Assembly: GCA_947504725.1 (NCBI GenBank)
Contig: CANNHN010000003.1
Location: 88,945 to 152,944, forward strand
Reading direction: 5' to 3'
Origin: Bacteroidota bacterium
GTDB taxonomy: Bacteria; Bacteroidota; Bacteroidia; 2-12-FULL-35-15
Length of the DNA stretch: 64,000 nucleotides
The notes below the pieces were generated by a model. That model saw nothing but the letters and a program-made list of their open reading frames with translations, made no database searches and was not told where the DNA came from. Within the stretch, counting starts at the first letter, position 1. Every line of letters begins with the position of its first letter. Below are positions 2,541 to 51,044 of the stretch, in pieces. The translations under genes and the position numbers were made by a program.

Positions 2541-2565
2541 GCCCTTCGACTCCGCTCAGGGTGAC
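2541..2565. repeat. Family-A repeat half-site, minus orientation (gcccttcgactccgctcagggtgac)
   Basis: A 25-mer near-identical to copies at 8876, 46212, 49300, 50961 and 51014. It sits in the divergent gldA-like/rsgA intergenic region. Confidence 0.7.
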
Positions 2566-2677
2566 AAACTATTTTAACGAATCTATGTTTGAAATTACTA
2601 TAAAATATGGTTCATAGTAATAAGCAATTCGTAATATTCGTAAAGATTAGTTATTTGTAACACAAAGCTAATTCTTT

Positions 2678-3640
2678 TTGATAAATTTGGTGTTCAAAAT
2701 AAAAATAATGCAAGGTGTTGTAATTAAGTCTACAGGAAGTTGGTATACTGTTCTATCAGAGGGCAATATTATTGAATGCAGGATAAAAGGTGTTTTTAGG
2801 ATCAAAGATATAAAAACTACTAATCCTATTGCTGTTGGCGATAACGTTGATTTTGAAATGGAGGCAGATGGAAGAGGAGTGATTCATGCAATTGGAGATC
2901 GTAAAAATTACATCATTCGGAAGTCAATCAATCTTTCCAAGCAATCACATATTTTGGCAGCCAATGTGGATCAGGCTATGTTGGTAGTTACTTTGGCTTT
3001 CCCTCGTACTTCAGCTGGTTTTATTGATAGATTTCTACTTACTGCAGAAGCCTATCAAATTCCTACAAAAATCATTTTTAATAAAGTGGATTTGTTTCAG
3101 GGAGATGAAAGTTTAATGAAAGAACTCAATAGTTTTATTGCTGTTTATGAAAAGATTGGATATGCCTGTTATAAAGTATCTGCGACTGAAAAAACAGATA
3201 TAGACAAGTTGCTAAATCTAACAAAAGACAAAACTACATTAATAGCAGGGCATTCGGGAGTTGGAAAATCGACATTGGTAAACGCCATGGATTCTAATCT
3301 AGATTTAAAAGTGGGAGAAATTTCAGATGCACATAATAAAGGAAAACACACCACTACTTTCGCAGAAATGCATCCCTTGACTTATGGAGGATTTATAATT
3401 GACACACCCGGAATAAAAGAATTGGGTTTGGTGGACATGGAAAAAGAAGAGATTGGAAATTATTTTGTAGAAATGCAGGCCATAAAAAACGAATGTAAAT
3501 TCAATAATTGCATTCACCTGAATGAACCGAAATGTGCTGTTATTGCAGCAGTTGAAAAAGGAGAGATTGCCATTTCAAGATACACCAGTTATGTGGGAAT
3601 AATTAATGGGGAAGAATTGGATGTTACGAATTACGAGTAG
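2678..3640 (+). CDS. rsgA: ribosome small-subunit-dependent GTPase A
   Basis: Circularly permuted GTPase motifs are present: NKVDL (G4), GHSGVGKSTLVNAM (G1) and DTPG (G3). A C-terminal Zn-finger CxHxxEPxC is present (CIHLNEPKCAV). The true start is probably the internal ATG near 2708 (MQGVVIKSTGSWY), not the TTG at 2678. Confidence 0.85.
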   Translation: MINLVFKIKIMQGVVIKSTGSWYTVLSEGNIIECRIKGVFRIKDIKTTNPIAVGDNVDFEMEADGRGVIHAIGDRKNYIIRKSINLSKQSHILAANVDQAMLVVTLAFPRTSAGFIDRFLLTAEAYQIPTKIIFNKVDLFQGDESLMKELNSFIAVYEKIGYACYKVSATEKTDIDKLLNLTKDKTTLIAGHSGVGKSTLVNAMDSNLDLKVGEISDAHNKGKHTTTFAEMHPLTYGGFIIDTPGIKELGLVDMEKEEIGNYFVEMQAIKNECKFNNCIHLNEPKCAVIAAVEKGEIAISRYTSYVGIINGEELDVTNYE

Positions 3641-3735
3641 TTTTACAGCAGAGAAAAATGAGAAAACAAGAGGGCCGCTGTGTGCTCTGTGTTCTCTGCG
3701 AAACCTCCGCGACTTCTGCGGTTAATTTTTTTGCG

Positions 3736-4188
3736 ATGAAAGTAGTTATCCAACGTGTTTTACAAGCATCTGTTTCCATTGGTGGGGAATTAAAAAGTTC
3801 CATTGGCTTGGGATTGCTTGTTTTATTGGGTGTTGAAGATGCCGATACGCAGGAAGATGTTGAGTGGCTAAGTTCAAAAATTATTAATCTCAGAATATTT
3901 AACGATGAAAATGGTGTCATGAATGTATCTATAAAAGATTCTGGAGGAGATATAATTTTAGTTTCTCAATTCACATTACACGCATCTACCAAAAAAGGAA
4001 ATCGTCCTTCTTATATTAAGGCTGCTAGACCAGAAATTGCAATTCCACTTTACGAAAAAATGATTCTTCAGCTACAACTTGATTTAGGAAAACCAATTCA
4101 AACTGGAGAGTTTGGAGCCGATATGAAAGTGAGTTTATTGAATGATGGTCCGGTTACGATTGTGATTGATAGCAAACAAAAGGAGTAG
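3736..4188 (+). CDS. dtd: D-aminoacyl-tRNA deacylase
   Basis: MKVVIQRVLQASVSI...SQFTLHAS...NGPVTIVIDS shows full-length Dtd similarity. The ORF-track start at 3658 adds 26 unlikely residues; the ATG at 3736 gives the canonical MKVVIQR N-terminus. Confidence 0.85.
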   Translation: MKVVIQRVLQASVSIGGELKSSIGLGLLVLLGVEDADTQEDVEWLSSKIINLRIFNDENGVMNVSIKDSGGDIILVSQFTLHASTKKGNRPSYIKAARPEIAIPLYEKMILQLQLDLGKPIQTGEFGADMKVSLLNDGPVTIVIDSKQKE

Positions 4189-4255
4189 ACAATTGTTAAA
4201 TTTCAATAATTTCTTTTTTATTGCCAACTAAGAATTGAAAAAGTACCATTGAATT

Positions 4256-5497
4256 TTACTCAAACCTCAATGCATCAATAGGATCTAATCTAGAAGCTTT
4301 GATAGCAGGATAAATCCCAGCAATTGTTCCTACAAATAAACATAGTACAATGCTCATGATAATCCAGCCCCACGGAATGATGAAGCTAATGTCGAACGAC
4401 AAAGCAATTAAATTTCCTAAAATGATTCCAAGTAATGTTCCTGCAAATCCGCCCATTTGGCAAATCACAACAGCTTCCACTAAAAATTGAGCACGGATTA
4501 CTTTTTTTGTTGCACCCACTGCTTTTCTAATTCCAATTTCGCGTGTTCTTTCTGAAACAGAAACCAGCATTATGTTCATTAATCCAATCGCTGCACCAAG
4601 CAAAGTAATAACTCCAATAATAGTCGCTCCGATAGTTACCTTCTGCATATTTTCAATCAGTAAGTTGGCAAGGTTGTCGCTTTTAGTAATTTCAAAATTG
4701 TCTTCTTCTCCAGCACTTAAATTTCGAATCACTCTGAATGTTCCTGTTGCTTCTCCAATAGCTGCATCCATTAACTGTGAACTGTTGCACATGATGTTAA
4801 TAGTAAATGTCATATTTGGAATAGAAAAATATTGTCGAACATTGCTCAACGGTAGAATTCCTACTTTGTCGCCACCAAAGCCTGAACTATTTCCTTTTGA
4901 TTTTAACACTCCAATGATTCGATATTTTCCACTTCCAATTGTAATTACTTTATCTATCGGATCTTGTTTTTTATTAAATAAAGCATCAATAACTTCTTTA
5001 CCCAAAATAACTACCGGAGTGCCATATAGTATTTCATTAGCAGAAAAATTTCTTCCTTTATCCAATTCATAGCCAGAAGTAGCCATGTAATTTTCATCAC
5101 CACCAAATATTCGAATGTTGGGGTTGGTCTTTTTCGATTCAAATTTTAATGTAGAAGAGCCGGAAGCTATTGTAGAAACAGATGGTTTGGCTGGAAAATT
5201 ATACACCTTACTAAAATCAATCGCTTCTTGGTAAGTAATATTTCTAAATTTTTTTGGTCTTTTCCCATTTTTACCAATTCGTACAGTCATTTCACGGTTT
5301 CGGATCGTAAAAGTGTTTGCACCCAAACTAGTAAAATTGCTATTGATAGAGGATTTTAGTGCGTCAATTGCTGTTAATGTACCAACCAGTGAAGTTATCC
5401 CAATAGTAATAATAAAAACCGTCAAAATCGTCCTCAGCAATTGGCTTCGGATTGCTCTCATTGATATTTTAATATTTTCTTTTAAAATTGAAGCCAT
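4256..5497 (-). CDS. ABC transporter permease, FtsX/MacB-like (N-terminal periplasmic domain and 4-TM FtsX C-terminal domain)
   Basis: The 413-aa protein has an N-terminal TM helix, a large extracytoplasmic domain, and a C-terminal FtsX-like block (ERTREIGIRKAVGATKKVI...) with three further TM helices. Confidence 0.7.
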   Translation of the reverse strand: MASILKENIKISMRAIRSQLLRTILTVFIITIGITSLVGTLTAIDALKSSINSNFTSLGANTFTIRNREMTVRIGKNGKRPKKFRNITYQEAIDFSKVYNFPAKPSVSTIASGSSTLKFESKKTNPNIRIFGGDENYMATSGYELDKGRNFSANEILYGTPVVILGKEVIDALFNKKQDPIDKVITIGSGKYRIIGVLKSKGNSSGFGGDKVGILPLSNVRQYFSIPNMTFTINIMCNSSQLMDAAIGEATGTFRVIRNLSAGEEDNFEITKSDNLANLLIENMQKVTIGATIIGVITLLGAAIGLMNIMLVSVSERTREIGIRKAVGATKKVIRAQFLVEAVVICQMGGFAGTLLGIILGNLIALSFDISFIIPWGWIIMSIVLCLFVGTIAGIYPAIKASRLDPIDALRFE

Positions 5498-5647
5498 TCG
5501 TGGTGTCTAGAACAACAAAATTAGTAAAGTAATTGAATTGAACTTGCTATATTGATGGAGTTTGATAAAGTTGATAATTTTTCTCATAAAATAGCCTTCA
5601 AATCATAGCAATAATGTATCTTTAGGTCGTCTTTAAAAAAATCCATA

Positions 5648-6520
5648 ATGTTAAAAAAATATTTCTTTTTGAATTTTACAGTTTTATTACTGACTTTCTT
5701 TTTCACAACATCAACAGCTTTAGCGCAAGGAAAAAAACCAGCAGCAGGTAAAGGAGCTCCAGCACCTAAGGCTGCAGCAAAAGGTACATTGGCTGCTGAT
5801 ATGGATTGTACCGTAAAGTTAAATGGGGCCGCAAAAGTAATTAATTTAAAAGCATATACTCCACTAGAAGTTGTTTTGAAAGTAGGTGATAATAGTGTAG
5901 AGGCGCAGTCGATTGACAAAAAATCAAACTATCGCAATACCGTTATTGGAGTGGCTGGAACAACAACAATTGTTGAGATTTCATTTTTTGATGATTCTAA
6001 GTTTTTGGATTATATCAAAACAGGAAATGTAAATATGGCAGAAACGGCTATCAAAAAAAATCCGGGATTAGCTACAAATGCTGATGGCATGTTAGTTACT
6101 TCACCTCTCCAAATTGCTATCGAAAATTCACAACCGGAAATGGTGACATATTTAATGGGTAAAGGAGCAAGTTTTTTGAAACCTGAAAATATTTATCCGT
6201 TGCATTTGGCTGTAAAATATGCTTCAGCAATAAAACCATCTAAAGATAAACCTGCACCAGATAAACAGTTGGCTGATTTGTTTTTGAGCAAAGGATGTAA
6301 AATAACTGATAAAGACGATGGTGGCAATACTCCTTTGCATTGTGCTGTTCGTGCTGGAAAAATGGACATGGTCTTAATGCTAGTTAAATTGGGTGCAGAT
6401 GTAAATGCAAAAAATGATTTTGATGATACAGCTATGAAAATTGCTGAAGACAAAGGCTTGATTTCTATCATTAGTTTTCTTGCAGCAAATGGTGCTACTC
6501 CTGTAAAAAAATCTGAATAA
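5648..6520 (+). CDS. secreted ankyrin-repeat protein
   Basis: It has an N-terminal signal peptide (MLKKYFFLNFTVLLLTFFFTTSTALA). The C-terminal half carries 3-4 ankyrin repeats (TPLHCAVRAGKMDMVLMLVKLGADVNAKN..., YPLHLAVKYAS...). Confidence 0.65.
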   Translation: MLKKYFFLNFTVLLLTFFFTTSTALAQGKKPAAGKGAPAPKAAAKGTLAADMDCTVKLNGAAKVINLKAYTPLEVVLKVGDNSVEAQSIDKKSNYRNTVIGVAGTTTIVEISFFDDSKFLDYIKTGNVNMAETAIKKNPGLATNADGMLVTSPLQIAIENSQPEMVTYLMGKGASFLKPENIYPLHLAVKYASAIKPSKDKPAPDKQLADLFLSKGCKITDKDDGGNTPLHCAVRAGKMDMVLMLVKLGADVNAKNDFDDTAMKIAEDKGLISIISFLAANGATPVKKSE

Positions 6521-6559
6521 CTTCTAAACTAAAGTATAACTTCAAAAAATAAACAAATT

Positions 6560-8827: not shown

Positions 8828-8845
8828 TTTTATTTTAATTTATAA

Positions 8846-8896
8846 TTCGACTCTGCTCTTGATGACAACTAATAGGTCACACTGAGCGGAGTCGAA
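8846..8896. repeat. Family-A repeat, imperfect inverted pair (hairpin) 20 bp downstream of the aconitase stop
   Basis: The left arm ttcgactctgctcttgatgac is largely complementary to the right arm gtcacactgagcggagtcgaa. The right arm is the Family-A 25-mer. No T-tract follows, so this is REP-like rather than a canonical intrinsic terminator. Confidence 0.6.
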
Positions 8897-8925
8897 GTGT
8901 TTACAGAGTACATTCTTATTCATCT

Positions 8926-23085: not shown

Positions 23086-23180
23086 AGGATCTTGTCCCCC
23101 TTTGAAGGGGGCTGGGGGATGATGATAGTCTTTATCAACAGGGAGATCCCGTGTCGTGGCACGGGATGACGGTTTCGAGA
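23086..23180. repeat. Family-C structured repeat (GGGAGATCCCGTGTCGTGGCACGGGATGACG hairpin) with an adjacent CCCCC-TTTGAA-GGGGG hairpin
   Basis: The perfect palindrome ATCCCGTG-tcgtgg-CACGGGAT lies at 23146-23167. A second copy set is at 54233-54330. The G+C content is high against an AT-rich background. Confidence 0.6.
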
Positions 23181-23874: not shown

Positions 23875-23899
23875 GTCAGCCTGAGCGTAGTCGAATGGC
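23875..23899. repeat. degenerate Family-A repeat half-site (gtcagcctgagcgtagtcgaatggc)
   Basis: It matches the Family-A consensus at 19 of 25 positions. It abuts the yidC stop codon and lies upstream of psd. Confidence 0.4.
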
Positions 23900-36660: not shown

Positions 36661-39600
36661 ATGAAGAATTTGAAAAAAAATATACTCCTTTCATTCATTT
36701 TATTATTAGTTAGTTCAATCTCGGCTACCAATTTGTATTGGGTAGGTGGAACAGGTTCGTGGAACCAAGCAATTCATTGGTCTTTAACTACCGGTGGTCC
36801 TTCTGGTGCAATTGTTCCTACTGCAAATGATGATGTTTATTTCGATCAAAATTCATTTTCAGCAGATCATCAAACCGTAATGGTTACCGTTAATGCGGTT
36901 TGTAGAAATATAGATTGGACGAATATCGACTCTAAAGCTATATTTTCTTGCTCTCCATCTAAATCGCTTTCAGTTTTTGGTTCTTATAAGCTTTCACCCT
37001 TATTAATGAATGGTTTTAAAGGAAAAACCATTTTTTCGGCAACCACAGCTAATAATGATATTTATTCGGCAGGTAAACCAATTATTGGTGATTGGCTTTT
37101 TAATGGCTCAGGTTCATGGAGTCTTCAAGATGATGTGAATGCAGCCAACGGTATTACCTTTTATTTGTTGAAAGGTTCATTAAGCACAAATGACAAAAAA
37201 GTAGTTTGTGATTATTTTAATGGAAATTCTACACAAACAAGAAATTTATCTTTAGGCAATTCTGAAATCACAATTAAAAAATGTTGGGATTTTTCAAATT
37301 CAATAAATGCTACATTGGATCCTGGTGCCTCTACAATTATTTTCCACGACACCATTAATGCCACTAATTTTAGAGATGGTAATTTAAGGTATGCTAGTGT
37401 TTCAACATTAAGAGCATTGGGTCAAAATACGGTTACGTGTGTATTTCCAGGAGTATTTACAATTACCCTAACCGCTGATAGTGTTACTTGTAACGGATTA
37501 TTAGATGGTTCTGTATGTGCTGTAGTTACGGGTGGTTCAGGAACATTTCTATATGATTGGAATTTTGCGGCTGTACCTGTTGGAGATGGAACCCCTTGTA
37601 TTACCCTTCGTCCTACTAGTGTAAATACATTGCAAGTGACTGATGTCGTTTCTGGAGTCACTCGCTTTTGTTCTATTACTGTTGGAGAACCTGCACTTTT
37701 ATTTGATTATGAAGTATTAAATATTTCGCCTACTTGTTTTGGTGTCTGCGATGGGTTAGCAGAGATTGACGAAACAGGGGGGACGCCTCCTTATACTTAT
37801 TCGTGGACAGGTGGATTAGGAACTAATGACTCAGCAATAAATGTTTGCGTTGGAACATATACAGTTACAGTTACTGATTCACGAGGTTGTACTAATAATG
37901 CAGCTGTAATCAATATGGTACAACCACCATTGCTAGTCGCTCCAGGATCTGCAACAATGATTAGTTGTTTTGGATTTTGTGATGGAACAGCAAGTGTAGT
38001 TGCATCTGGTGGATCAGTTCCCTACACATACGATTGGACACCTGGTGCACCGATTGGAGATGGAACTCCTGCTGTTACTGCATTGTGCCCAGCTAGTTAT
38101 ACATGTACTGTAACAGATATAAACGGATGTATTGCCACATTTGATACAACAATTACTCAGCCTTTGGTATTAACACTTACTATGTCGCAAGTGAATGCTA
38201 CTTGCGGAGGAATGTGTGATGGAACAGCAACAGCAACAGTTTCAGGTGGTACCACTCCCTATATTTATGTTTGGTCAAATGGTTCTGTAACTTCTACAGT
38301 TTCTACAACCAACACAATTAGTGGTTTGTGCGCTGGACCATATACCGTTACTGTTACTGATGCAAATGGCTGTACTTTAAATAATAATGTCACAATAACC
38401 GAGCCTCCTGTTTTGGTTGCTACTGCATCTGGAACCAATATTACTTGTTTTGGTTTATGTAATGGAACTGCGACTGTTGTCGTTGTCGGAGGAAATGGCG
38501 GTAATACTTTTGATTGGACACCTGGAAATCCTACGGGAGATGGAACAGCAAATATTACAGGTTTGTGTGCCGGAACATATACCGTTACCGTTTTTGATAA
38601 TACAGGAATTTGTACAGACACAGGAGTAGTTGTTATTACAGAGCCGGCAATTTTAGCAGCGAACCCAACAAGCACTAATGTTCTGTGTTTTGGTGCGTGT
38701 AATGGAACTGCAACTTCTATTCCTTCTGGTGGAACGCTTCCATATTCGTTTGATTGGACACCTGGAGCGCCAACAGGAGATGGTACGGCATTCATTATAA
38801 ATTTGTGTCCTAATACATATACTGTTACAGTTACTGATGGAAATGGCTGTACAAATAGTCAAAGTGTTGTCATTACACAACCCGCTGTTTTAAGTGATGG
38901 AGCTACTTTTACTAATGTATCATGTAATGGTGCTTGTGATGGAACTGCTACAGCAAATCCTGTAGGAGGTACTCCAGGCTATACCTATCTTTGGAGTACT
39001 GGAGCTATTACTCCTGGCATTACAGGCTTGTGTCCTGGTTCATATACTGTAACCGTAACAGATGCAAATCTTTGTACAAATTCTGGAACCGTTGTCATTA
39101 CTCAACCAAATATCTTAAACGTAAGTGTGGTTGCTTCAGCATTGGCTTGTAATGGCGATTGTAATGGAACTGCAGTTGCTACGATCTCAGGTGGAACAGC
39201 TCCTTTTGCAATTGATTGGACACCAGGCTCTCCGATTGGTGATGGAACTACTACTATTAGCTCTTTGTGTTCTGGAACATATACTATAAATGTTGTAGAT
39301 GCGAATGGTTGTCCTGGAACGGCTTCTGGGGCAGTGTTTGAGCCAACAGTTTTGGTATTGACTACATCAGTAACGGATGTTACCTGCTTTGCTGCTTGTG
39401 ACGGAACGGCCTCAGCTTTAGCTGGAGGTGGAACTCCTGGATATTCTTATTCTTGGTTGCCAGGCGCACTTTCAACTTCATCAATTTCTGGATTATGTCC
39501 AGGGAGTTATACTGTTACTGTTACCGATTTAAATGGTTGTACTATTTCAGATACAGTTACGATAATTGAACCAACCCAAGTGTTTGCAAATCCAGCAGTA

Positions 39601-42600
39601 GTAAGTAATATTAGTTGTGCTGGAGTTATTCCATGTGATGGTTCTGCAACAGCAACTCCTTCAGGTGGAACTGCGCCATATTCTTTATTTAATTGGTCGC
39701 CTGGTGCTCCCGCTGGTGATGGAACGCCAACTATTACAGGTTTGTGTGCTGGAATTTATAGCGTAACAATTTTGGATGCAAATGGTTGTCCTTCAACTAT
39801 GTCAGTCACAATCACTCAGCCCTTGGCTTTGAGTGCTCCCATTACGAGTTCTACATCTAGTTGTAATATTTGTAATGGATCAGCAACTGTAACGCCTGCA
39901 GGTGGAACTCCTGGTTACACTTATTTGTGGATGCCTACTGGGCAAACAACTCAAACCGCAATTGGACTTTGTCCAAATATTACTTACACGGTAACTGTTA
40001 CCGATGCGAATGGTTGTGTTGCTAGTAGCTCAGTTTTAATTACACAAACAATTATTATTAGCATTACAACTTCTCCAACAACATTAAGTTGTTTTGGGGC
40101 ATGTGATGGTGTTGTTACTGCAAATGCTGCAGGAGGAACGTTGCCATATAGTTTTATTTGGACTGGCCCATCTCCATCAACAGCTACTATTTCTTTAACG
40201 CAAACAGCAACTGCATTATGTGCAGGAACATATGTTGTGAATGTTTCAGACGCAGCAGGTTGTTTCAATAGCGATTCAATCACATTTTCTAATCCTCCTG
40301 TATTAACAATAAGCGCAGTAAGTACCAACGAAACTTGTAATGGTTCTTGTGATGGAACCGCTACAGCAACTGGTGTTGGAGGAACGGCACCGCTAAGCTA
40401 TTCATGGAATACGGTTCCTATTCAAAACACTGCAATAGCTACGGGGTTGTGTACAGGAACGTATACAGTTACTGTTACTGACGCAAGTGGTTGTACTGCT
40501 ACTACTACTGTAAGTATTGCTGGTCCACCTGCTGTAATAGATAACGTTACTATTACGGATGCGAATTGTACGTTTGCTGATGGTCAAATTACTGTAGCAC
40601 CTACGGGCGGTGCAGGAGCTGGAACATATACTTTTAATTGGGGTCCTGGTGCTCCAACTGGAGATGGAACTTCAACCATTACTGGATTACTGCCAGGAGT
40701 TTACACTTTAGCAATTACAACAGGAGGTTGTACTTATAACTTCAGTTATATTTTAAATAATATTGCAGGACCAACAACAACAATGTCACATATAGATGTT
40801 TCCTGTTTTGGTGCATGTGATGGAACAGCAAGTGTTTTGGCAGCAGGCGGAGCAGGTGGTTATGTGTTTGATTGGACGCCCGGAGTGCCTACAGGTGACG
40901 GAACAGCAGCTATTACTGCTTTGTGCGGAACTACTACTTATACTGTTACCGTTGTTGATGCAGCGGGTTGTATCACGATTGATACAGCAAGAATTATTAA
41001 TCCATCATTGATATCACCAAACCCAACTGTTGTTCTAGAAAGTTGTGGTGGTGCATGTGATGGAAGTATTACATTGGTTCCAACAGGAGGAACTGGACCC
41101 TACACTTATTCTTGGTCAGGTGGATTACCTCCCACATCTAGTCAAACTGGATTATGTGCTGGTGTATACACAGTAACTGTTCTCGATACAAATCTATGTG
41201 ATTCTATTTTAACAATTACAATTACTGCCCCACCAACTTTAATTGTTACACTTTCTTCAACTGATGTTTTATGTGCTGGAGCTTGCGATGGAACAGCAAC
41301 TGCAACAGCAGTTGGTGGAACAGGAGCTGGAACATACATTTATTCTTGGTTACCAAATCCTCCCTTAGGTCCACTTTTCCCTTTGCCAACAGTTGTTGGA
41401 TTGTGTCCTGGAAGTTATGATGTAACAGTAACTGATGGAAACGGCTGTACGGCAGCAGACACTATAATTATTACTGAACCCATTGCCTTAACAACTGTAA
41501 CATCTCAAACAAATGCTTCCTGTTTTGGAGTATGTGATGGAGAAGCTGTTGTAACTCCAAGCGGAGGAACATTACCTTACACATTTATTTGGAATCCAGG
41601 AGCGATTGCAAACGATACTGCTAGTGGATTGTGTGCTGGAAATTATATCGTTACAGTTACCGATGCGAACGGTTGTGTTTCAATTCCTCCAACAGTAATT
41701 ATTACAGAGCCAGCTCCAATTCTTCCGAATGCAACTTTTGTAAATCCTTTATGTAATGGTTCATGTAATGGAACAGCTACTGCAAATCCAACAGGTGGTT
41801 CTGGTGTTTATACTTATTCATGGAATACTATTCCTGTTCAAATTACGCAAACCGCAGTTGGATTGTGTTCGGGAACATATATCGTTACTGTTGACGATGG
41901 AAGTTGTTCAAATACACAAAGTATTACTTTAATAGATCCACCAATCTTAAATGCAAATGCAACTGCTACTTCTCCAACTTGTGTTGGCGATTGTGATGGA
42001 AGTGTTACTGCAAACCCAGTTGGTGGAACAGGAACATATTCTTATTCGTGGACACCTGGTGCGATTGCAACTCAAACTGTAATTAATTTATGTCCGAATA
42101 TTTATACAGTAATTGTAAATGATGGAAACGGCTGTGCCGATACTCAAGTTGTAATACTAGCAAATCCTATTGGTATTGATGTGGTTGTAGGTAGTACTCC
42201 TGCAAATTGTGGGGCATGTGATGGAACAATATCTCTTGTGCCAATAAGCGGAACAGGTCCTTATACTTATGTTTGGACGCTTGGAGGTCTTCCTCCACCG
42301 TTACCTTTCGCTGGAAATGGAACACCAAATGTCACAAATGTTTGCGCAGGATTGTATGATGTTTTAGTTACAGATGCAAATGGTTGTGATTCTACATTCA
42401 CTATACCAATGAATAACTCTAGTGGCCCAACAGGTGAAACCGTAATTACAACTCCTACATCATGTAATGGAGTTTGTGATGGAACGGGTTCTGTTACTCC
42501 AATTGGTGGATTAGCTCCTTACACATTCTTATGGAATGATGGACCACCTGCAACTGCACTTGATACAGCTTTTGGATTGTGTACTGGAAATTATTTTGTT

Positions 42601-45258
42601 CAAGTTACTGATGCAAGTGGATGTATTCATTTCAGTCCAGTTACTATTGTAGAACCAGCTCCAATCGTTCCAAACGAAGTTATCACTTTGGCACTTTGCA
42701 GTAATATTTGTACTGGTGCCATTACTGTTACCCCTTCTGGTGGAACTGCTGGATATTCCTATTTTTGGACTCCTGGAGTAATTGTTGGACAAGGTACAAA
42801 TAGTGTTTCTGGATTATGCGCAGGAACATATACGTTAAGTATAACGGATGCAAATTCATGTGTGCAAATTGATTCATTTGTTGTAGGGCAATCAACTCCG
42901 CTTACAGCAACTATTAACTCAACAACTATTTCATGTTCTTCTGCATCAACAGGAATTGCTTATATCAATATTACTTCTGGTACGGGTCCATATACAATTC
43001 AATGGAACGATTCTTTCGGACAAACAAATGATACAGCTTTTGCATTGGCAGCTGGTAATTATTCTGTTGACATTACTGATGCACTTGGTTGTATTCTTAC
43101 TTTAACAACAACCATTACTGCAACTCCGCCCGTTTCTGCAAATGCAGTAATTACAGCTTCTACCTGCGGATTGTGTGATGGTAGTGCAATATTAACCCCA
43201 ACAGGAGGAACTGCTGGCTTTACTTATTTGTGGAGCAACGGACAAACTACTTCAACTGCAACAGCTTTATGCGCAGGTTTATATACTGTTGATATTACAG
43301 ATGCGAATGGTTGTATCACAAGTGTGGCTGTTCCTGTAAATAATATAGGCGGACCAACAAGTGCTGTAATTGCTTCAACAAATGTTACTTGTAATGGATT
43401 GTCAAATGGTACTGTAACTGCAGTCACTCCAAGCGGTGGAACTGCTCCTTATACTTTCTTGTGGATTGCGAGTGGTTCAACCACTGCTGCTCAATCAGCT
43501 TTAGGTGCAGGAACTTATTTTGTTCAAATCACAGATGCAAACGGTTGTTCATTAATTGATTCTGTAATAATTACAGAGCCTGCTGCTATTTCGGCTAATC
43601 AAGTAATACTTGCAGCAACTTGTGGATTGTGTGATGGTTCTGTTACTCTTACTCCAACTGGTGGTGCAGGTGGTTATACTTATTTGTGGAATACTGGTGC
43701 TACCACATCTTCATTAGCAGCTTTATGTGCTGGTGTTTATTCAGTTGATATTACTGATGTTGCAGGATGTGTTGTAAATGTTGTTATTACCATTAATAGT
43801 CAAACCGGTCCAACACTTGTTACTTCGTCAACGTCTAATTTATGTAATAGTACTTGCACTGCAACAGCAAGTGTAGTGGCTACAGGTTCCTCTCCATTCG
43901 CTTATTTGTGGACACCAACTTTACAAACCACGCCAAGTACAACAGCAACTCTTTGTGCTGGAACATATTTTGTTCAAGTAACAGATGCTGTAGGTTGTGT
44001 AACCATTGCTTCTACAACAGTTACGGAGCCTGATACTATTGGATTTAGTATTGCAAACGCACAAGACCCATTGTGTAACGGAAATGCAAATGGATCTATA
44101 ACAGTTATTCCGTCAGGAGGAACTTTGTCATATACTTATTCATGGACACCAGCTCCGGCACTTGGACAAACTACAGGAACAGCAATTAATCTTAATGCAA
44201 ATACCTATATCGTTACAGTTACAGATACGAATGGATGTATTGCAACACAAACGATAACACTCGTAAATCCAACTTCTTTAACAATTAGTAATACTTCTGT
44301 TAATTCAAGTTGTAATACTATTCCTGATGGTTCAATTGATGTAACTGTTGGAGGTGGTACTCTTCCATATGCATATCAATGGAGTGGTGGTTCAGTTGCA
44401 ATTACTGAAGATTTAGTTGGAATTTTAAGTGGAACATATACAATTACTGTTACCGATTCAAATTCTTGTACAATTGCCGATACAATTATTTTGTTGCCTA
44501 ACCAAACTGTTATTGCAGTTGCAGGAAATGATACTTCTTTCTGTCAGTCGGGCTCAATTACATTGGATGCTTCGGCAAGTGTTAACGGTACATCTTATCA
44601 GTGGTTTGATTTGAGTGGTACTCTTTTAGGTTCTTCTATTACTTTAACATTTAATCCACCTGCAGGTACAAATAGTTTTTATGTGGTTGTAGATAATGGT
44701 ACAGGTTGTAGTGATAGCGATACGGTTGATGTTACTGCAAATCCTTTGCCTACTGCAAATGCTGGGGCAGATGTTACAATAATTCTTGGAGGATCAATTG
44801 GTATTGGTGGAAGTCCTACAACTACATCTGTTGGAGCAACATTTTCTTGGTCTCCAACTCTTGGTTTAGATAATGCAACAATTGCAAATCCATCTGCAAA
44901 TCCAATAACAACTACAACGTATACTGTAACTGTTACTTCTGCTCAGGGGTGTACCGCAGTTGATTCAGTAATAGTAACAGTTCGACCTACAATTATTTTC
45001 CCTGATGGTATTTCTCCAAATGCGGATGGTGCAAACGATGAGTGGATAATTGATGGGATTGAATTATTCCCTAATTGTGAAGTTGAGGTGTACAATCGTT
45101 GGGGTGAATTATTATTTCAATCAGTGGGATACAAAGAAAATTGGGATGGAACATTCAAAGGACAATTCTTGCCTGTTGGAACTTATTATTATGTGATAGA
45201 TTTAAAAGATGAATTATTTCCTGATGCTTATACCGGTCCAATAACAATACTTAGATAA
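36661..45258 (+). CDS. SprB-repeat giant cell-surface adhesin with a T9SS type-B C-terminal sorting domain (CHU_C / gliding-motility-associated CTD)
   Basis: A 2,865-aa protein with a signal peptide. I count about 29 tandem ~95-aa modules of the form ...Cx(G)xC(D/N)GTATA...GGTxPYTYxWxPG...GLC(A/P)GTYTVTVTDANGC..., which are SprB repeats. The C-terminus is FPDGISPNADGANDEWII...VEVYNRWGELLF...WDGTFKGQFLPVGTYYYVI, which is the TIGR04131 / type-B CTD. Confidence 0.8.
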   Translation: MKNLKKNILLSFILLLVSSISATNLYWVGGTGSWNQAIHWSLTTGGPSGAIVPTANDDVYFDQNSFSADHQTVMVTVNAVCRNIDWTNIDSKAIFSCSPSKSLSVFGSYKLSPLLMNGFKGKTIFSATTANNDIYSAGKPIIGDWLFNGSGSWSLQDDVNAANGITFYLLKGSLSTNDKKVVCDYFNGNSTQTRNLSLGNSEITIKKCWDFSNSINATLDPGASTIIFHDTINATNFRDGNLRYASVSTLRALGQNTVTCVFPGVFTITLTADSVTCNGLLDGSVCAVVTGGSGTFLYDWNFAAVPVGDGTPCITLRPTSVNTLQVTDVVSGVTRFCSITVGEPALLFDYEVLNISPTCFGVCDGLAEIDETGGTPPYTYSWTGGLGTNDSAINVCVGTYTVTVTDSRGCTNNAAVINMVQPPLLVAPGSATMISCFGFCDGTASVVASGGSVPYTYDWTPGAPIGDGTPAVTALCPASYTCTVTDINGCIATFDTTITQPLVLTLTMSQVNATCGGMCDGTATATVSGGTTPYIYVWSNGSVTSTVSTTNTISGLCAGPYTVTVTDANGCTLNNNVTITEPPVLVATASGTNITCFGLCNGTATVVVVGGNGGNTFDWTPGNPTGDGTANITGLCAGTYTVTVFDNTGICTDTGVVVITEPAILAANPTSTNVLCFGACNGTATSIPSGGTLPYSFDWTPGAPTGDGTAFIINLCPNTYTVTVTDGNGCTNSQSVVITQPAVLSDGATFTNVSCNGACDGTATANPVGGTPGYTYLWSTGAITPGITGLCPGSYTVTVTDANLCTNSGTVVITQPNILNVSVVASALACNGDCNGTAVATISGGTAPFAIDWTPGSPIGDGTTTISSLCSGTYTINVVDANGCPGTASGAVFEPTVLVLTTSVTDVTCFAACDGTASALAGGGTPGYSYSWLPGALSTSSISGLCPGSYTVTVTDLNGCTISDTVTIIEPTQVFANPAVVSNISCAGVIPCDGSATATPSGGTAPYSLFNWSPGAPAGDGTPTITGLCAGIYSVTILDANGCPSTMSVTITQPLALSAPITSSTSSCNICNGSATVTPAGGTPGYTYLWMPTGQTTQTAIGLCPNITYTVTVTDANGCVASSSVLITQTIIISITTSPTTLSCFGACDGVVTANAAGGTLPYSFIWTGPSPSTATISLTQTATALCAGTYVVNVSDAAGCFNSDSITFSNPPVLTISAVSTNETCNGSCDGTATATGVGGTAPLSYSWNTVPIQNTAIATGLCTGTYTVTVTDASGCTATTTVSIAGPPAVIDNVTITDANCTFADGQITVAPTGGAGAGTYTFNWGPGAPTGDGTSTITGLLPGVYTLAITTGGCTYNFSYILNNIAGPTTTMSHIDVSCFGACDGTASVLAAGGAGGYVFDWTPGVPTGDGTAAITALCGTTTYTVTVVDAAGCITIDTARIINPSLISPNPTVVLESCGGACDGSITLVPTGGTGPYTYSWSGGLPPTSSQTGLCAGVYTVTVLDTNLCDSILTITITAPPTLIVTLSSTDVLCAGACDGTATATAVGGTGAGTYIYSWLPNPPLGPLFPLPTVVGLCPGSYDVTVTDGNGCTAADTIIITEPIALTTVTSQTNASCFGVCDGEAVVTPSGGTLPYTFIWNPGAIANDTASGLCAGNYIVTVTDANGCVSIPPTVIITEPAPILPNATFVNPLCNGSCNGTATANPTGGSGVYTYSWNTIPVQITQTAVGLCSGTYIVTVDDGSCSNTQSITLIDPPILNANATATSPTCVGDCDGSVTANPVGGTGTYSYSWTPGAIATQTVINLCPNIYTVIVNDGNGCADTQVVILANPIGIDVVVGSTPANCGACDGTISLVPISGTGPYTYVWTLGGLPPPLPFAGNGTPNVTNVCAGLYDVLVTDANGCDSTFTIPMNNSSGPTGETVITTPTSCNGVCDGTGSVTPIGGLAPYTFLWNDGPPATALDTAFGLCTGNYFVQVTDASGCIHFSPVTIVEPAPIVPNEVITLALCSNICTGAITVTPSGGTAGYSYFWTPGVIVGQGTNSVSGLCAGTYTLSITDANSCVQIDSFVVGQSTPLTATINSTTISCSSASTGIAYINITSGTGPYTIQWNDSFGQTNDTAFALAAGNYSVDITDALGCILTLTTTITATPPVSANAVITASTCGLCDGSAILTPTGGTAGFTYLWSNGQTTSTATALCAGLYTVDITDANGCITSVAVPVNNIGGPTSAVIASTNVTCNGLSNGTVTAVTPSGGTAPYTFLWIASGSTTAAQSALGAGTYFVQITDANGCSLIDSVIITEPAAISANQVILAATCGLCDGSVTLTPTGGAGGYTYLWNTGATTSSLAALCAGVYSVDITDVAGCVVNVVITINSQTGPTLVTSSTSNLCNSTCTATASVVATGSSPFAYLWTPTLQTTPSTTATLCAGTYFVQVTDAVGCVTIASTTVTEPDTIGFSIANAQDPLCNGNANGSITVIPSGGTLSYTYSWTPAPALGQTTGTAINLNANTYIVTVTDTNGCIATQTITLVNPTSLTISNTSVNSSCNTIPDGSIDVTVGGGTLPYAYQWSGGSVAITEDLVGILSGTYTITVTDSNSCTIADTIILLPNQTVIAVAGNDTSFCQSGSITLDASASVNGTSYQWFDLSGTLLGSSITLTFNPPAGTNSFYVVVDNGTGCSDSDTVDVTANPLPTANAGADVTIILGGSIGIGGSPTTTSVGATFSWSPTLGLDNATIANPSANPITTTTYTVTVTSAQGCTAVDSVIVTVRPTIIFPDGISPNADGANDEWIIDGIELFPNCEVEVYNRWGELLFQSVGYKENWDGTFKGQFLPVGTYYYVIDLKDELFPDAYTGPITILR

Positions 45259-46186: not shown

Positions 46187-46211
46187 TCGCAACCATCTTC
46201 CCCACACTTTT

Positions 46212-46235
46212 GTCACTTCGAGCGGAGTCGAGAAG
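46212..46235. repeat. Family-A repeat half-site (gtcacttcgagcggagtcgagaag)
   Basis: A near-identical 24-mer to the copy at 49300-49325. It lies just downstream of the PorP/SprF stop. Confidence 0.65.
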
Positions 46236-46284
46236 TCCCTGTCCAAAAACACTTACACTCATTTATGAAAATGCATATTACGGA

Positions 46285-46393
46285 GCGTCATTGCGAGTCC
46301 CGTCCCGATAATTCGGGACGGGACTCGCAATCTCATCCATAAAGGGTTGACTATGCTGGTGTGGGATTGCTTCGTGCCTCGCAATGACGTTCT
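46285..46393. repeat. Family-B MITE-like element (~105 bp, 12-bp terminal inverted repeats CGTCATTGCGAG...CTCGCAATGACG) with an internal perfect 18-bp-stem hairpin
   Basis: The left end is gcgtcattgcgag. The internal palindrome is ttgcgagtcccgtcccga-taat-tcgggacgggactcgcaa. The right end is ggattgcttcgtgcctcgcaatgacgttc. Copies are at 47385-47487 and 59874-59980, with partial copies at 52421-52465 and 63338-63358. Confidence 0.7.
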
Positions 46394-46436
46394 TATTTAT
46401 GCTTTGATTTATTTAAAGAAAGTTTATATTTGTTAC

Positions 46437-47378: not shown

Positions 47379-47384
47379 TTACGG

Positions 47385-47487
47385 GGCGTCATTGCGAGAG
47401 AAGCGAAGCAATCTCACACTAGTATCGTCAGCCCTTAATGGATGAGATTGCCACATCGCGCGAAAAGGAGCGAATCGCAATGACGTT
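47385..47487. repeat. Family-B MITE-like element, full copy
   Basis: The sequence runs ggggcgtcattgcgagaagcgaagcaatctcacac...atgagattgccacatcgcgcgaaaaggagcgaatcgcaatgacgttc. It has TIRs (1 mismatch) and an internal hairpin gcgcg-aaaagga-gcg. It is collinear with the copy at 59874-59980. Confidence 0.7.
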
Positions 47488-47532
47488 CTTTTATTCAACA
47501 GTTTAAGAAGAACAAATATTATTATTAAACCT

Positions 47533-48000
47533 ATGTCAAAAAAGAAAAAGTTTTTTATCCTATTGGTTATTGTTTTTATCATCATTCAATTCATTCGTCC
47601 GGAGCGCAATCTTGGCAAACGTGAAACAGAAAATACCATTTTTGTTTCCAACGAAGTAGGGCAAATTTTGCAAACTTCTTGTTTTGATTGTCATTCCAAT
47701 TATACGGTATACCCTTGGTATACCAATATTCAACCAATTGGTTGGTGGTTGAATCACCACGTGAATGAAGGGAAGGAAGAATTGAATTTTTCGGAATTTG
47801 AAACTTATTCTTTAAAACGCAAACTCCATAAGTTGGAAGAGATTAAGGAGATGGTGGATGAAAATGAAATGCCATTGCCTTCTTATTTGTGGATTCATGG
47901 AGAAGCAAAATTAACTTCTGAGCAAAAAGATGTGCTTTCAAAGTGGGTGTTGGAGACAAGAAAATATCTTGCAGATACGCTTTCTAGACCGAAATTGTAA
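47533..48000 (+). CDS. putative heme-binding domain (Haem_bd) protein
   Basis: CFDCHSNYTVYPWYTNIQPIGWW...GKEELNFSEF matches the conserved CxxCH-like heme-binding domain family. An N-terminal TM helix is present. Confidence 0.5.
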   Translation: MSKKKKFFILLVIVFIIIQFIRPERNLGKRETENTIFVSNEVGQILQTSCFDCHSNYTVYPWYTNIQPIGWWLNHHVNEGKEELNFSEFETYSLKRKLHKLEEIKEMVDENEMPLPSYLWIHGEAKLTSEQKDVLSKWVLETRKYLADTLSRPKL

Positions 48001-48149
48001 TCTATCTATCTCTGGCTTAAAACAAGGAATCTCTTTTTTTATAGGCATTGCAGGGACTATTTTTATTAATTTAGTTAGGTTTTATTCTCCCCCAAACCTC
48101 ATATTTCTATCTCCTTTTTTCGTATATTTACATCACCAAAAAAACGATT

Positions 48150-49238
48150 ATGAGCATTACAGCAGAACAAGTTTTAGAAGCCTTAAAAAATGTAGAAGAC
48201 CCCGATTTAAAGAAAGATTTGGTGACCTTGGGTATGATTAAAGATTTAGTGGTAGATGGTAAAAATGTAAACTTTACTGTTGTGCTTACTACGCCTGCAT
48301 GTCCTATGAAAGAAATGATTCACAAAGCGTGCGTTAATGCCGTTTTGCATTTTGTAGATAAAGAAGCGATTGTAAAAGTAGAGATGACCTCAAATGTTAC
48401 TTCTGGAAAAGTAAATTCTGGCCCACTATTACCACAAGTGAAAAATATAATAGCTGTTGCATCCGGTAAAGGTGGAGTAGGGAAATCTACTATTGCTTCC
48501 AACTTGGCTGTAGCCTTGGCAAAACAAGGCGCTAAAGTTGGCTTGGTAGATGCGGATATTTACGGACCATCTCAAACCATTATGTTTGACGTGGTGCATG
48601 AAAGACCATTGATTAAATCGATTGATGGAAAAAATAAAATAGTTCCTGTTGAAAGTTATGGGGTAAAATTATTGTCCATCGGATTTTTTGCTGATACATC
48701 TCAAGCAATTGTATGGCGAGGACCAATGGCTGCAAAAGCATTAACACAAATGTTTGCCGATGCTGATTGGGGTGAATTAGATTATATGATTATTGATTTA
48801 CCTCCAGGTACTGGTGATATTCATTTATCGTTGGTTGGTGCAATTCCTTTGAATGGTGTTGTGATTGTAAGTACGCCACAAAATGTAGCGTTGGCTGATG
48901 CACAAAAAGGAGTTGGAATGTTCCAGATGGAATCTATCAACGTGCCCGTATTGGGCATTGTAGAAAACATGGCCTATTTTACACCAGCTGAACTTCCGAA
49001 CAATAAATATTATATCTTTGGTAAGGACGGAGCAAAAACGCTTGCAGAAAAATTGGGTGTTCCTTTATTAGGCGAAATTCCATTAGTGCAAAGTATTTGT
49101 GAAGCAGGTGATGCTGGTCGTCCAGCTGTCATGCAAGAAAGTACACCTCAAGCATTGGCTTTTATGGAAATGGCTAGTAAAATTGCGCAACAAGTTTCGA
49201 TTGTAAATAGTCAGAGGCAGCTGGTTACGAGTAACTAA
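48150..49238 (+). CDS. apbC: Mrp/NBP35-family iron-sulfur cluster carrier ATPase (ApbC), with an N-terminal DUF59/MIP18-like domain
   Basis: The P-loop is VASGKGGVGKSTIASNLA. The CxxC cluster-binding pair is CEAGDAGRP. It is 362 aa long. Confidence 0.8.
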   Translation: MSITAEQVLEALKNVEDPDLKKDLVTLGMIKDLVVDGKNVNFTVVLTTPACPMKEMIHKACVNAVLHFVDKEAIVKVEMTSNVTSGKVNSGPLLPQVKNIIAVASGKGGVGKSTIASNLAVALAKQGAKVGLVDADIYGPSQTIMFDVVHERPLIKSIDGKNKIVPVESYGVKLLSIGFFADTSQAIVWRGPMAAKALTQMFADADWGELDYMIIDLPPGTGDIHLSLVGAIPLNGVVIVSTPQNVALADAQKGVGMFQMESINVPVLGIVENMAYFTPAELPNNKYYIFGKDGAKTLAEKLGVPLLGEIPLVQSICEAGDAGRPAVMQESTPQALAFMEMASKIAQQVSIVNSQRQLVTSN

Positions 49239-49299
49239 GAAAAAAGTAGACAATTGTCAGTAGACAAGAAAAATAAATAAAAAATAGACAAATGTTTTT

Positions 49300-49325
49300 G
49301 TCACTTCGAGCGGAGTCGAGAAGCG
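49300..49325. repeat. Family-A repeat half-site, ending 1 nt before the NifU-like start codon
   Basis: The sequence is gtcacttcgagcggagtcgagaagcg, followed immediately by the ATG at 49326. Confidence 0.65.
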
Positions 49326-49595
49326 ATGGACGTAATTCATAATACGATGATAGACCTTTCAAAAAAAGTAGAAGAAGCATTAGATCAAATTCGTCCATAT
49401 TTGCAAGCGGATGGTGGCAATGTTTCGTTGGTTGAAATTACAGATGATTTTGTCGTAAAAGTGGAATTACTTGGTGCATGCAAATCATGTTCAATGAGTA
49501 TGATGACCATGAAAGCAGGAATTGAAGAATCCATCAAAAGATCCGTGCCTGAAATTAAAAGCGTAGAAGCCGTTAACTTGTCATTAGCTATTTAA
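49326..49595 (+). CDS. NifU-like (Nfu-type) Fe-S cluster assembly domain protein
   Basis: An 89-aa protein. VEEALDQIRPYLQADGGNVSLVEI...LGACKSCSMS is the NifU C-terminal domain, with a CxxC motif. Confidence 0.7.
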   Translation: MDVIHNTMIDLSKKVEEALDQIRPYLQADGGNVSLVEITDDFVVKVELLGACKSCSMSMMTMKAGIEESIKRSVPEIKSVEAVNLSLAI

Positions 49596-50945
49596 ATGAA
49601 AAACCTTATCACCTTATCACTTATCACTGTATCACTTTTTTCATGCACTCCAGAAATTGAGATGCCAGAACCAAGTGCAGGTGATGCTGATTTTTCGAAG
49701 ATGATTGCTGTGGGTGGAAATTATTTGGCTGGATATCAAGATGGCGCTTTGTATGAAAAAGGACAACGACTTTCTATTCCTGCTTTGTTAGCAGAACAAT
49801 TTAAATTGGTGGGCGGTCCAACATTCGGGCAAGCATTGATGCCAGATAACAATGGGTTAGGAGTGAATAGTAAACTTTGGGAAAGTTGGTTCATTACTCC
49901 AAGTCATTTGGGAAATAAAACAAACTGTCAAGGTATTACTGCTCTTTCTCCCATAAAATATACGATTGGTACAACAGCTGCAACGCCTTATTTAACAGAT
50001 ATGGCAGGAAATGCAGTTCAGAATTTAGCAATTCCATTTGCAAGTCTTTCCGATTATATGAATCCATCTTTTGGATACAGTTCTTTTACTGGTAATACAA
50101 ATCCTTATTATGCGCGTATTGCAAGTAATCCTGGCACATCTACTTTGTACGAAGATGCTCGTCAGCAAAATGCCAGCTTTATTACAGCTTGGTTGGGAAT
50201 GGAAGATATTTACAATTTTGCAAGCAAAGGCGGAACCGGAGCTCCGATTCCATCTGCATCAAGTTTTGCAAACTATTTGGATACCATTTTAGGAGGATTA
50301 ACTGCAAGTGGTGCCAAAGGAGTTATTGCAAATATTCCAGATTTTAGAAATTACCCTTATTACACATTGGTCGCTTGGGACAATGCAGTATTGGTGCGCC
50401 AAACGCAAGTCGATTCATTGATGGATATTTATACACTTGCCGGTTTAACACATTTAAATTTTGCATTGGGTAGAAATGGATTTGTAATAAATGATCCTGC
50501 AGCTGTTGGTGGTGTTCGTCAAATGCATGCCGGTGAATACATTACACTTTCTGTTCCAATCGATTCGATGAAATGTTATAAATATGGTTTGTTCTTCGAA
50601 ACAATAAACGATCGTTATATTTTGGATAGTACAGAAGTATACGAAATTGACCAAGCCATAAATTCTTACAATGCAGTGATTGCTCAAAAAGCGAATCAAT
50701 ATAATTTAGCGTTAGTGGATATGCATTCTTATATGAGTAGTGTTTATACTGGAATCAAATGGAATGGAGTTGATATGAATATGACATTTGTGAGTGGTGG
50801 CTTTTTAAGTTTAGATGGTTATCACCCGAATCAAAAAGGCTATTCTTTGATTGCGAATGAATTTATTAAAGCAATCAATTCTAAATACAATGCGACCATT
50901 CCGGAAGTGTATTGTACGGAGTGTGATGGGGTGAAGTTTCCTTAA
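49596..50945 (+). CDS. lipoprotein, probable SGNH/GDSL-type hydrolase
   Basis: The lipobox is LSLITVSLFSC. The C-terminal LDGYHPNQKGY contains the DxxH catalytic dyad typical of SGNH hydrolases. The assignment is tentative. Confidence 0.4.
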   Translation: MKNLITLSLITVSLFSCTPEIEMPEPSAGDADFSKMIAVGGNYLAGYQDGALYEKGQRLSIPALLAEQFKLVGGPTFGQALMPDNNGLGVNSKLWESWFITPSHLGNKTNCQGITALSPIKYTIGTTAATPYLTDMAGNAVQNLAIPFASLSDYMNPSFGYSSFTGNTNPYYARIASNPGTSTLYEDARQQNASFITAWLGMEDIYNFASKGGTGAPIPSASSFANYLDTILGGLTASGAKGVIANIPDFRNYPYYTLVAWDNAVLVRQTQVDSLMDIYTLAGLTHLNFALGRNGFVINDPAAVGGVRQMHAGEYITLSVPIDSMKCYKYGLFFETINDRYILDSTEVYEIDQAINSYNAVIAQKANQYNLALVDMHSYMSSVYTGIKWNGVDMNMTFVSGGFLSLDGYHPNQKGYSLIANEFIKAINSKYNATIPEVYCTECDGVKFP

Positions 50946-50960
50946 TGGAACGCGGATAAT

Positions 50961-51044
50961 GCGCCCTTCGACTCCGCTCAGGGTGACGTTCTAATGAATG
51001 TTACTCTCTGCCGTCACACTGAGCGGAGTCGAAGTGTAAGGGCT
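50961..51044. repeat. Family-A repeat, inverted pair forming a ~27-bp-arm hairpin
   Basis: The left arm gcgcccttcgactccgctcagggtgac (50961-50987) and the right arm gtcacactgagcggagtcgaagtgtaagggc (51014-51044) are reverse complements apart from a 4-nt insertion. Confidence 0.7.

Follow-up and report, generated by a model that had tools for sequence, protein, structure and literature searches.

In Neisseria, the oriented form of the repeat dRS3, termed NTS (CGTCATTCCCGCGMAVGCGGGAATCYRG), serves as the site for SsnA, an enzyme of 94 aa with a single GIY-YIG domain (Chenal et al. 2025; PMC11893778). SsnA binds NTS solely as single-stranded DNA (ssDNA) and cuts it a few bases upstream of its tag, with no binding of RNA and no cutting of duplex; recognition involves an HGTCW tag and the hairpin together with its sequence, an 8-bp sequence-specific palindrome around a 4-nt loop (PMC11893778). 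In N. meningitidis, activity was lost when the palindrome was changed with the hairpin left intact, and the C right after the palindrome was critical for SsnA binding (PMC11893778). The SsnA/NTS pair restricts incoming transforming DNA in meningococci, and across phyla ssnA homologues carry Ssn-related motifs (SRM; published pattern HGTCWYN(0-2)YYVSBRHN(0-5)WNVSBRGN(0-2)RNCYNB) on at least one side in 71% of cases and on both sides in 42%, the Ssn-type clade being CDD cd10448, GIY-YIG_unchar_3 (PMC11893778). Repeats of this kind had been grouped by Di Nocera et al. 2013 (PMC3733652) into a superfamily of CGTC/TGTC-tagged repetitive extragenic palindromic (REP) sequences that includes Neisseria dRS3 and Rickettsia RPE-4/6, admits CCTC as a further terminal tag, starts its stem with an A:T pair, forms dimers that are mostly head-to-head, comes without a dedicated or tyrosine transposase, and was already reported in Bacteroidetes; its four described CGTC families have 8-9-bp stems, 4-5-nt loops and a CCA-like tail (PMC3733652). 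Here we analyze Family A, a short palindromic repeat scattered through a 64-kb stretch of a Bacteroidota genome (contig CANNHN010000003.1; the whole stretch is called the window below).

Our analysis indicates that Family A is very probably a short-stem, long-loop class of Ssn-type hairpin site, tied to the gene of a ~100-aa GIY-YIG nuclease, and its features are best explained by membership among the CGTC/TGTC-tagged repeats and the SRM. The general Ssn system was published in 2025; the Family A class itself appears to be undescribed in the searchable literature, the supplementary motif data of the Ssn paper aside, and a literature search for the literal loop sequence returned unrelated primer matches only.

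Each Family A unit consists of a (T/C)GTC tag, an A, 4 free nucleotides, the 12-nt loop GAGCGGAGTCGA and 4 complementary nucleotides, usually followed by T or C. The window copies are listed here, with coordinates running from the tag through the 3' stem arm:

2542-2565, minus strand: solo unit, GTCA CCCT GAGCGGAGTCGA AGGG, in the divergent spacer between the ABC-ATPase gene (gldA-like) and rsgA
8843-8866, minus strand: degenerate unit, GTCA TCAA GAGCAGAGTCGA ATTA, left arm of pair 1
8876-8899, plus strand: unit, GTCA CACT GAGCGGAGTCGA AGTG, right arm of pair 1, 3' of the aconitase gene
8843-8899, no strand assigned: dimer 1, head-to-head with 9 nt between the facing tags, an imperfect long hairpin
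23875-23899, plus strand: degenerate unit, GTCA GCCT GAGCGTAGTCGA A(T)GGC, between the yidC stop and the psd start
46212-46235, plus strand: solo unit with compensated stem CTTC/GAAG, 26 nt past the PorP/SprF stop codon
49300-49323, plus strand: solo unit with stem CTTC/GAAG, in the mrp-nifU spacer
50964-50987, minus strand: unit, GTCA CCCT GAGCGGAGTCGA AGGG with a CGTC tag, left arm of pair 2
51013-51036, plus strand: unit, GTCA CACT GAGCGGAGTCGA AGTG with a CGTC tag, right arm of pair 2
50964-51036, no strand assigned: dimer 2, head-to-head with a 25-nt spacer, 3' of the GDSL/SGNH gene

Searching the window for the core GAGCGGAGTCGA with at most 2 mismatches returned 9 matches, against a mean of 0.75 in the shuffled sequence that set the chance level; 8 of them are the units above, at the places where an earlier note on this DNA had reported eight copies, and the ninth (42892; 2 mismatches) is intragenic and unrelated. 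A second search with the full 24-mer consensus, allowing at most 3 mismatches, recovered 5 copies against 0.00 expected. Tag and loop are indeed common to the copies, as the 25-mer consensus of the earlier note implied, while its stem does not fit the units at 46212 and 49300, which have CTTC/GAAG instead; the window copies thus use three compensatory stem versions (CCCT/AGGG, CACT/AGTG and CTTC/GAAG). What the note had called half-sites, rightly seen both solo and as inverted dimers, each form a hairpin by themselves, whose stem covaries while the loop is fixed. It had recognized the degenerate copy at 23875 (bulged stem, one loop mismatch; antisense to both yidC and psd) and overlooked a second one at 8843-8866 (stem unpaired, one loop mismatch). 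Its description of the copies as always extragenic is nearly right, the final base of unit 23875-23899 falling within the yidC stop codon (a 1-base overlap), and its names for the flanking genes (ABC ATPase, aconitase, YidC, PSD, PorP/SprF, NifU and GDSL/SGNH) all hold. The flanks of the copies are unrelated, which contradicts a single segmental duplication as their source, an origin that the note had also raised. The units of both inverted pairs stand head-to-head, GTCA tag to GTCA tag, and the pairs fold as single strands into the long imperfect hairpins that had been proposed (dimer 1, -15 kcal/mol, z -5.6; dimer 2, -29 kcal/mol, z -8.7).

Unit 2542-2565 is 28 nt 5' of the ABC-ATPase start, in sense orientation relative to that gene. 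The first in-frame ATG of the nifU open reading frame (ORF), at 49326, is 2 nt past unit 49300-49323, such that the claim of a copy abutting the NifU start codon is true of the longest ORF only; NifU homologues are 82-83 aa long and begin MIDLSKK, which corresponds to the ATG at 49347, 23 nt past the unit. Judging from this sequence conservation, the true nifU start is probably the ATG at 49347 rather than 49326, and the seven-codon N-terminal extension is probably an artefact of the inserted unit.

To characterize the unit beyond the window, we scanned a collection holding one genome per species for GTCA-N4-GAGCGGAGTCGA and obtained at least 119 loci. Among the matches listed, the four bases after the loop were the perfect complement of the first stem arm in 119/167 cases (1/256 expected) and a 3-of-4 complement in a further 36/167, with more than 20 different stems in use. 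In a set of 144 distinct copies, the G, T, C and A of the tag were each at least 90% conserved, GTCA was preceded by T in 104 copies and by C in 18 (in the window, by T in 5 of the 8 copies, by C in 2 and by G in 1), and the first stem pair was A8-T29 in 78. Nothing outside the ~26-nt unit was conserved, save the T before GTC and the T or C after the stem; CTC, CCC and CTT were the commonest tails, none of them dominant.

The stem covaries strongly around its fixed loop. Across the 5-bp helix of the 144 copies, 85.6% of cells were paired, compared with 58.4% after shuffling (0/500 shuffles reached the observed value), and the covariation score reached 0.793 (shuffles, 0.262; slid partners, 0.13-0.18). 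Taken alone, a unit has a folding energy of just -1.5 to -1.9 kcal/mol, a marginal value no better than that of shuffles, and because the hairpin is so weakly stable, the pairing is kept by selection for recognition rather than for stability. Moreover, the two loop-proximal pairs are nearly always Y-R, and G.T stem mismatches outnumber A.C ones (15 against 5), which together indicate that one strand is the functional one.

Perfect-stem matches occur across many phyla. Among the matches listed, the majority were from Bacteroidota, with others from Acidobacteriota, Verrucomicrobiota, Planctomycetota, Zixibacteria, Chloroflexota, Marinimicrobia, Omnitrophota and one alphaproteobacterium. By comparison, IMG/VR viral contigs (L222-L282) gave 65 matches in all, of which 26 had perfect stems and about half had random, chance-like stems, and none of the 65 had a GIY-YIG gene beside the unit. 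These random stems calibrate the result from the genome collection, and the Family A element looks chromosomal, not phage-borne.

Solo units located between same-strand genes showed a mild bias towards the sense orientation (26 sense, 15 antisense). Dimers across genomes were tail-to-tail in 25 cases, head-to-head in 17 and direct in 10, with variable spacing, and gene-less tail-to-tail dimers with spacers of 8-76 nt were common. Further arrangements were seen at individual loci: five head-to-tail units with a 27-nt period lie just 5' of a GIY-YIG gene (L042 1424-1553), and three units are repeated with a period of ~195 nt in another tandem array (L026 139-547). Some units carry 25-40-nt insertions inside the loop, between GAGCG and GAGTCGA, with tag and stem intact (L042 1287-1400; L018 about 2330-2440 and 2950-3000), the two loop halves acting like separable ends.

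Units are gained and lost rapidly. When we compared the orthologous spacers of relatives, a check that the earlier note had itself proposed, units were present in some and absent from others: at 78-90% protein identity, the orthologous regions differed at every unit site. One relative has very short spacers and zero units; another carries a differently stemmed unit in the same mrp-nifU spacer as the window; in a third, nifU and the lipase gene are separated by a dimer that the window lacks; and in a fourth this nifU-lipase dimer is decaying through point mutation. The spacers of these relatives are too diverged to fix insertion boundaries or target duplications, and same-species metagenome contigs, identical to the window at both sites compared, provided no insertion polymorphism.

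To search for a partner gene starting from the element, we looked for ORFs bracketed by units within the element-selected loci (at least 119). This search yielded three ~100-aa proteins with a YVYIL...YYTG...RRL.EH signature, and a profile built from the three found 6 such genes in 119 loci among the matches listed. In Pfam, the six bracketed proteins belong to GIY-YIG (PF01541; E 1e-19). The unit before each of the six genes is in the sense orientation (plus), 10-130 nt from the start, and the unit after it is inverted (minus), 0-30 nt from the stop or overlapping it, a layout in which the unit tags point outward. Furthermore, GIY-YIG was the commonest Pfam family among the 126 ORFs lying within 150 nt of a unit, and no transposase family had two or more members among them.

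The association was also evident when the protein, rather than the element, served for selection. We picked 80 metagenome loci by the GIY-YIG protein alone and searched them for a generalised unit (GTCA, N4, GAG-N5-6-CGA, then the perfect complement). At least one such unit lay within 300 nt of the gene in 43/80 loci, and units were found on both sides in 19/59; unit density was 3.04/kb near the gene and 0.073/kb beyond 600 nt, a 42-fold difference. The orientation was mostly preserved, with 47 plus and 21 minus units upstream and 39 minus and 20 plus units downstream. Two loop classes dominated these loci, that of Family A (GAGCGNAGTCGA) and an 11-nt sister, GAGCYTGTCGA. The sister class, TGTCA-N4-GAGC(C/T)TGTCGA-N4-T, flanks related GIY-YIG genes and had the commonest loop (54 units); its loci fall within L141-L212 (for example L144, L156, L158, L169, L179 and L212). 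Some GIY-YIG ORFs can read through into the downstream inverted unit (L106 1995-2038; Sphingomonas L135 780-815), and the resulting C-termini (...GFDSAQPDN..., ...LRLRSGRTRE) are likely to be common annotation artefacts.

Homologues of these proteins link Family A to the described Ssn system. A 94-aa Rhizobium protein is 42% identical to a Family-A-flanked protein (E 1e-16), and its gene has exact matches to the published SRM pattern on its flanks, in the same orientation; a Sphingomonas homologue has GTTCA-GGCT-GAGCGAAGTCGA-AGCC units upstream. In a rough neighbour-joining tree, homologues from Sphingomonas and Methylobacterium joined the Family-A-linked proteins in a separate clade, whose sister was the canonical-SRM-flanked group (Rhizobium, S. 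meliloti, Planktothrix, Spirosoma); the UPF0213 members YhbQ, YazA and BH0048 fell outside this clade. UPF0213 proteins (YhbQ and YazA; PDB 1ZG2, 1YWL) resemble the Family-A-linked ones in size, in their single GIY-YIG domain and in 42% identity over ~80 residues, and differ in having a GKGAKYT motif that the latter lack. Their genes reside in conserved housekeeping neighbourhoods (trmN-yazA-rsmI, yhbP-yhbQ-yhbS), where no flanking repeats were noted, though no repeat scan was made there. An NCBIfam search with the GIY-YIG proteins gave no match.

Family A and Ssn/SRM have in common a hairpin repeat that is oriented and starts with an unpaired (C/T)GTC-A tag at the 5' side, hundreds of intergenic copies per genome, a broad phyletic spread, and inverted copies with outward tags around a gene for a ~95-105-aa single-domain GIY-YIG protein, as in NTS-ssnA-NTS; the GTCA of all 8 window copies agrees with the SRM tag HGTCW. 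With the CGTC superfamily it shares the terminal CGTC/TGTC tag, the A:T first stem pair, a short tail, and the occurrence of both solo units and head-to-head dimers, and differs from it in lacking the CCA tail and in having tail-to-tail dimers at least as commonly as head-to-head ones.

Several observations weigh against placing Family A among Ssn-type sites. None of the 8 window copies matches the published SRM pattern, the C directly after the palindrome is present in just 83/144 copies (and in 4/6 intact window copies), and the 5-bp stem and conserved 12-nt loop depart from the repeats of the CGTC superfamily. The stem of Family A is free and its 12-nt loop invariant, whereas the NTS palindrome is needed for activity, and the rules of recognition must therefore differ. 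The Family-A-linked proteins form a separate clade without the C-terminal NPxWxDL-type end of the canonical-SRM-flanked proteins, and their BLAST scores against UPF0213 equal or exceed the one against the canonical Rhizobium protein (YazA 70 bits, BH0048 69, Rhizobium 55). A profile search showed the GIY-YIG gene to be absent from the 64-kb window and from the 21-kb orthologous loci of relatives.

We offer tentatively a bolder and considerably more doubtful reading: Family A and its GIY-YIG partners could be a distinct branch of hairpin-specific ssDNA nucleases, apart from both cd10448 Ssn and UPF0213, that recognises loop and tag and travels as an autonomous mobile cassette driven by its GIY-YIG enzyme. 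In that case the invariant 12-nt loop and the GTC tag may be what is recognised, with the stem supplying geometry only, which would reverse the NTS rule, and the cassette may have seeded solo units resembling miniature inverted-repeat transposable elements, dimers and arrays in at least 9 bacterial phyla.

For the Ssn-type reading that we favour, a working model can be drawn by analogy with SsnA. The cassette would be unit-GIY-YIG gene-unit with tags outward, like NTS-ssnA-NTS, and solo units, inverted dimers and tandem arrays would be its gene-less derivatives. The nuclease would bind the tagged strand only when this is single-stranded, guided by its tag, its loop sequence and the geometry of its hairpin, and would nick a few bases 5' of the tag. 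The source genome would encode the nuclease outside the window. The way in which the copies multiply, and any secondary effect of the dimers on transcripts or of the nifU-leader copy on expression, are likewise matters of inference.

Causality might also run in the opposite direction, with the units being pre-existing host repeats and the GIY-YIG gene a homing-type selfish gene that inserts into them, in which case the inverted units on either side of the gene would be the two parts of a split target rather than cassette ends. GIY-YIG enzymes are classic homing endonucleases, only a minority of units adjoin a gene, and the common gene-less tail-to-tail dimers, with their 8-76 nt spacers, have the geometry expected of empty sites. 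We nonetheless consider this scenario unlikely, as it does not account for where the units came from, why their loop is invariant or how they spread across phyla, and SsnA cuts ssDNA, not duplex (PMC11893778). Moreover, related GIY-YIG clades each have their own hairpin class (GAGCGGAGTCGA, GAGCYTGTCGA or canonical SRM), which implies co-evolution of enzyme and site.

It is very unlikely, in our assessment, that the units act chiefly as RNA, with a protein-binding hairpin in untranslated regions, dimers that serve as terminators or 3' stabilisers, and an incidental link to GIY-YIG genes. Covariation around a fixed loop and the excess of G.T over A.C mismatches would suit RNA too, there is the mild sense excess of solo units between same-strand genes (26 against 15), and the dimers fold strongly and sit just past stop codons. 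However, orientation is only weakly biased, dimers come in both polarities (25 tail-to-tail, 17 head-to-head), the single hairpin is barely stable, the dimers lack a T-run (none follows 8899 or 51036 on the 3' side), no Rfam family matches (nothing in the whole window at the gathering threshold), and SsnA does not bind RNA (PMC11893778). A 42-fold enrichment with a fixed outward orientation at one gene family is, furthermore, hard to call incidental. Narrower RNA identities were rejected in turn: an intrinsic terminator reading of the dimers, given the missing T-runs and a scan of 50800-51200 that called no terminator-like site at dimer 2; microRNA-precursor matches of dimer 2 in a permissive Rfam search (E ~0.01), spurious hits that reflect the long hairpin only; and ribozyme, tRNA-arm and sarcin-ricin-like loop readings, which misfit the consensus cores and had no Rfam score. 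A tRNA/tmRNA scan gave no match.

The earlier note had described the repeat as a dispersed intergenic palindromic unit of REP or bacterial interspersed mosaic element (BIME) type, a description that is upheld and that extends far outside the window, and had looked to a REP-associated tyrosine transposase (RAYT; IS200-like) as its partner, which the data do not support. The resemblance to REP/RAYT systems (REPtron, REPIN) is real, and consists in short tagged intergenic palindromes, dimers, a single-copy nuclease gene between cognate repeats and, presumably, recognition as single-stranded hairpins; the difference lies in a GTC tag in place of GT[AG]G and in the partner, a hydrolytic nuclease of the GIY-YIG type where REP/RAYT systems have an HUH-Y1 transposase. 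That Family A represents classical REP/BIME units mobilised or maintained by a RAYT (IS200-like Y1 HUH) is accordingly extremely improbable: the units are dispersed, intergenic and palindromic, solo and dimeric, and RAYTs of subclasses 2.4 and 2.6 do occur in Bacteroidetes together with repeats (HUH-Y1 survey), but the tag is (T/C)GTC (GTAG stood at the tag position in 1/209 loop-anchored copies), the catalogued Bacteroidetes RAYT repeats (subclass 2.6, for example GCTAG-CGCGAGCG-TCC-CGCTCGTG) are unrelated to the motif, CGTC-tagged repeats are reported without a tyrosine transposase (PMC3733652), and GIY-YIG, with no transposase family reaching 2 members, is the top family of the 126 unit-adjoining ORFs. 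The RepRanger paper contained no relevant motif.

If Family A is an Ssn-type site, a cross-phylum intergenic repeat would move from being REP-like, with a partner unknown or RAYT, to the Ssn-type nuclease/hairpin systems. The published SRM pattern misses Family A, implying that the reach of Ssn is probably underestimated, above all in Bacteroidota, Acidobacteriota, Verrucomicrobiota and Planctomycetota. A site made of a fixed 12-nt loop on a freely varying stem would add a new class of specificity to the site-specific ssDNA nucleases, enzymes for which biotechnological uses have been stated. For annotation, the units flag fast-evolving intergenic spots, explain presence/absence noise among close relatives, can lengthen or shorten ORF calls (as for NifU here) and are a source of spurious ORF-end peptides such as ...FDSAQ.D... 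and ...LRLRSG....

Two further repeat classes occur in the window:

23142-23171, minus strand: second repeat class, CGTCATCCCGTGCC(A/C)CGACACGGGATCTCC
54292-54321, minus strand: second repeat class
54235-54264, plus strand: second repeat class
46286-46389: third class, ~100-bp element
47387-47485: third class, ~100-bp element
59879-59981: third class, ~100-bp element
52420-52462, minus strand: third class, solo arm

The second class has an 8-bp stem and a 6-nt loop, and two of its copies (23142-23171 and 54292-54321) match the canonical SRM pattern exactly, against 0.1 matches expected, showing that the window also carries canonical SRMs. In a relative, a repeat of this SRM-type class follows sprF, at the place where the window has a Family A unit. 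Elements of the third class are bounded by terminal inverted repeats, hairpin arms of the form CGTCATTGCGAG...GCAATCTCA, that enclose a conserved core, TCTCACAC...CAGCCCTTAATGGATGAGATTGC; the loops of the arms vary, sometimes with a nested hairpin, and one arm, GTCA-TTGC-GAGAGAAGCGAA-GCAA-TC, is a close cousin of Family A.

Apart from these repeats, a close relative (L130/L131 5453-8413) carries a gene for an rve integrase and a DUF6922/AbiEii pair between the haem-binding gene and mrp, an insertion that is absent from the window (about 48000-48150). Within the window, a gene on the plus strand (36661-45258) encodes a 2865-aa SprB-like gliding-motility adhesin composed of ~237-nt (79-aa) repeats, which makes up the bulk of the repeat-finder output and accounts for the locally raised G+C (0.38-0.40).

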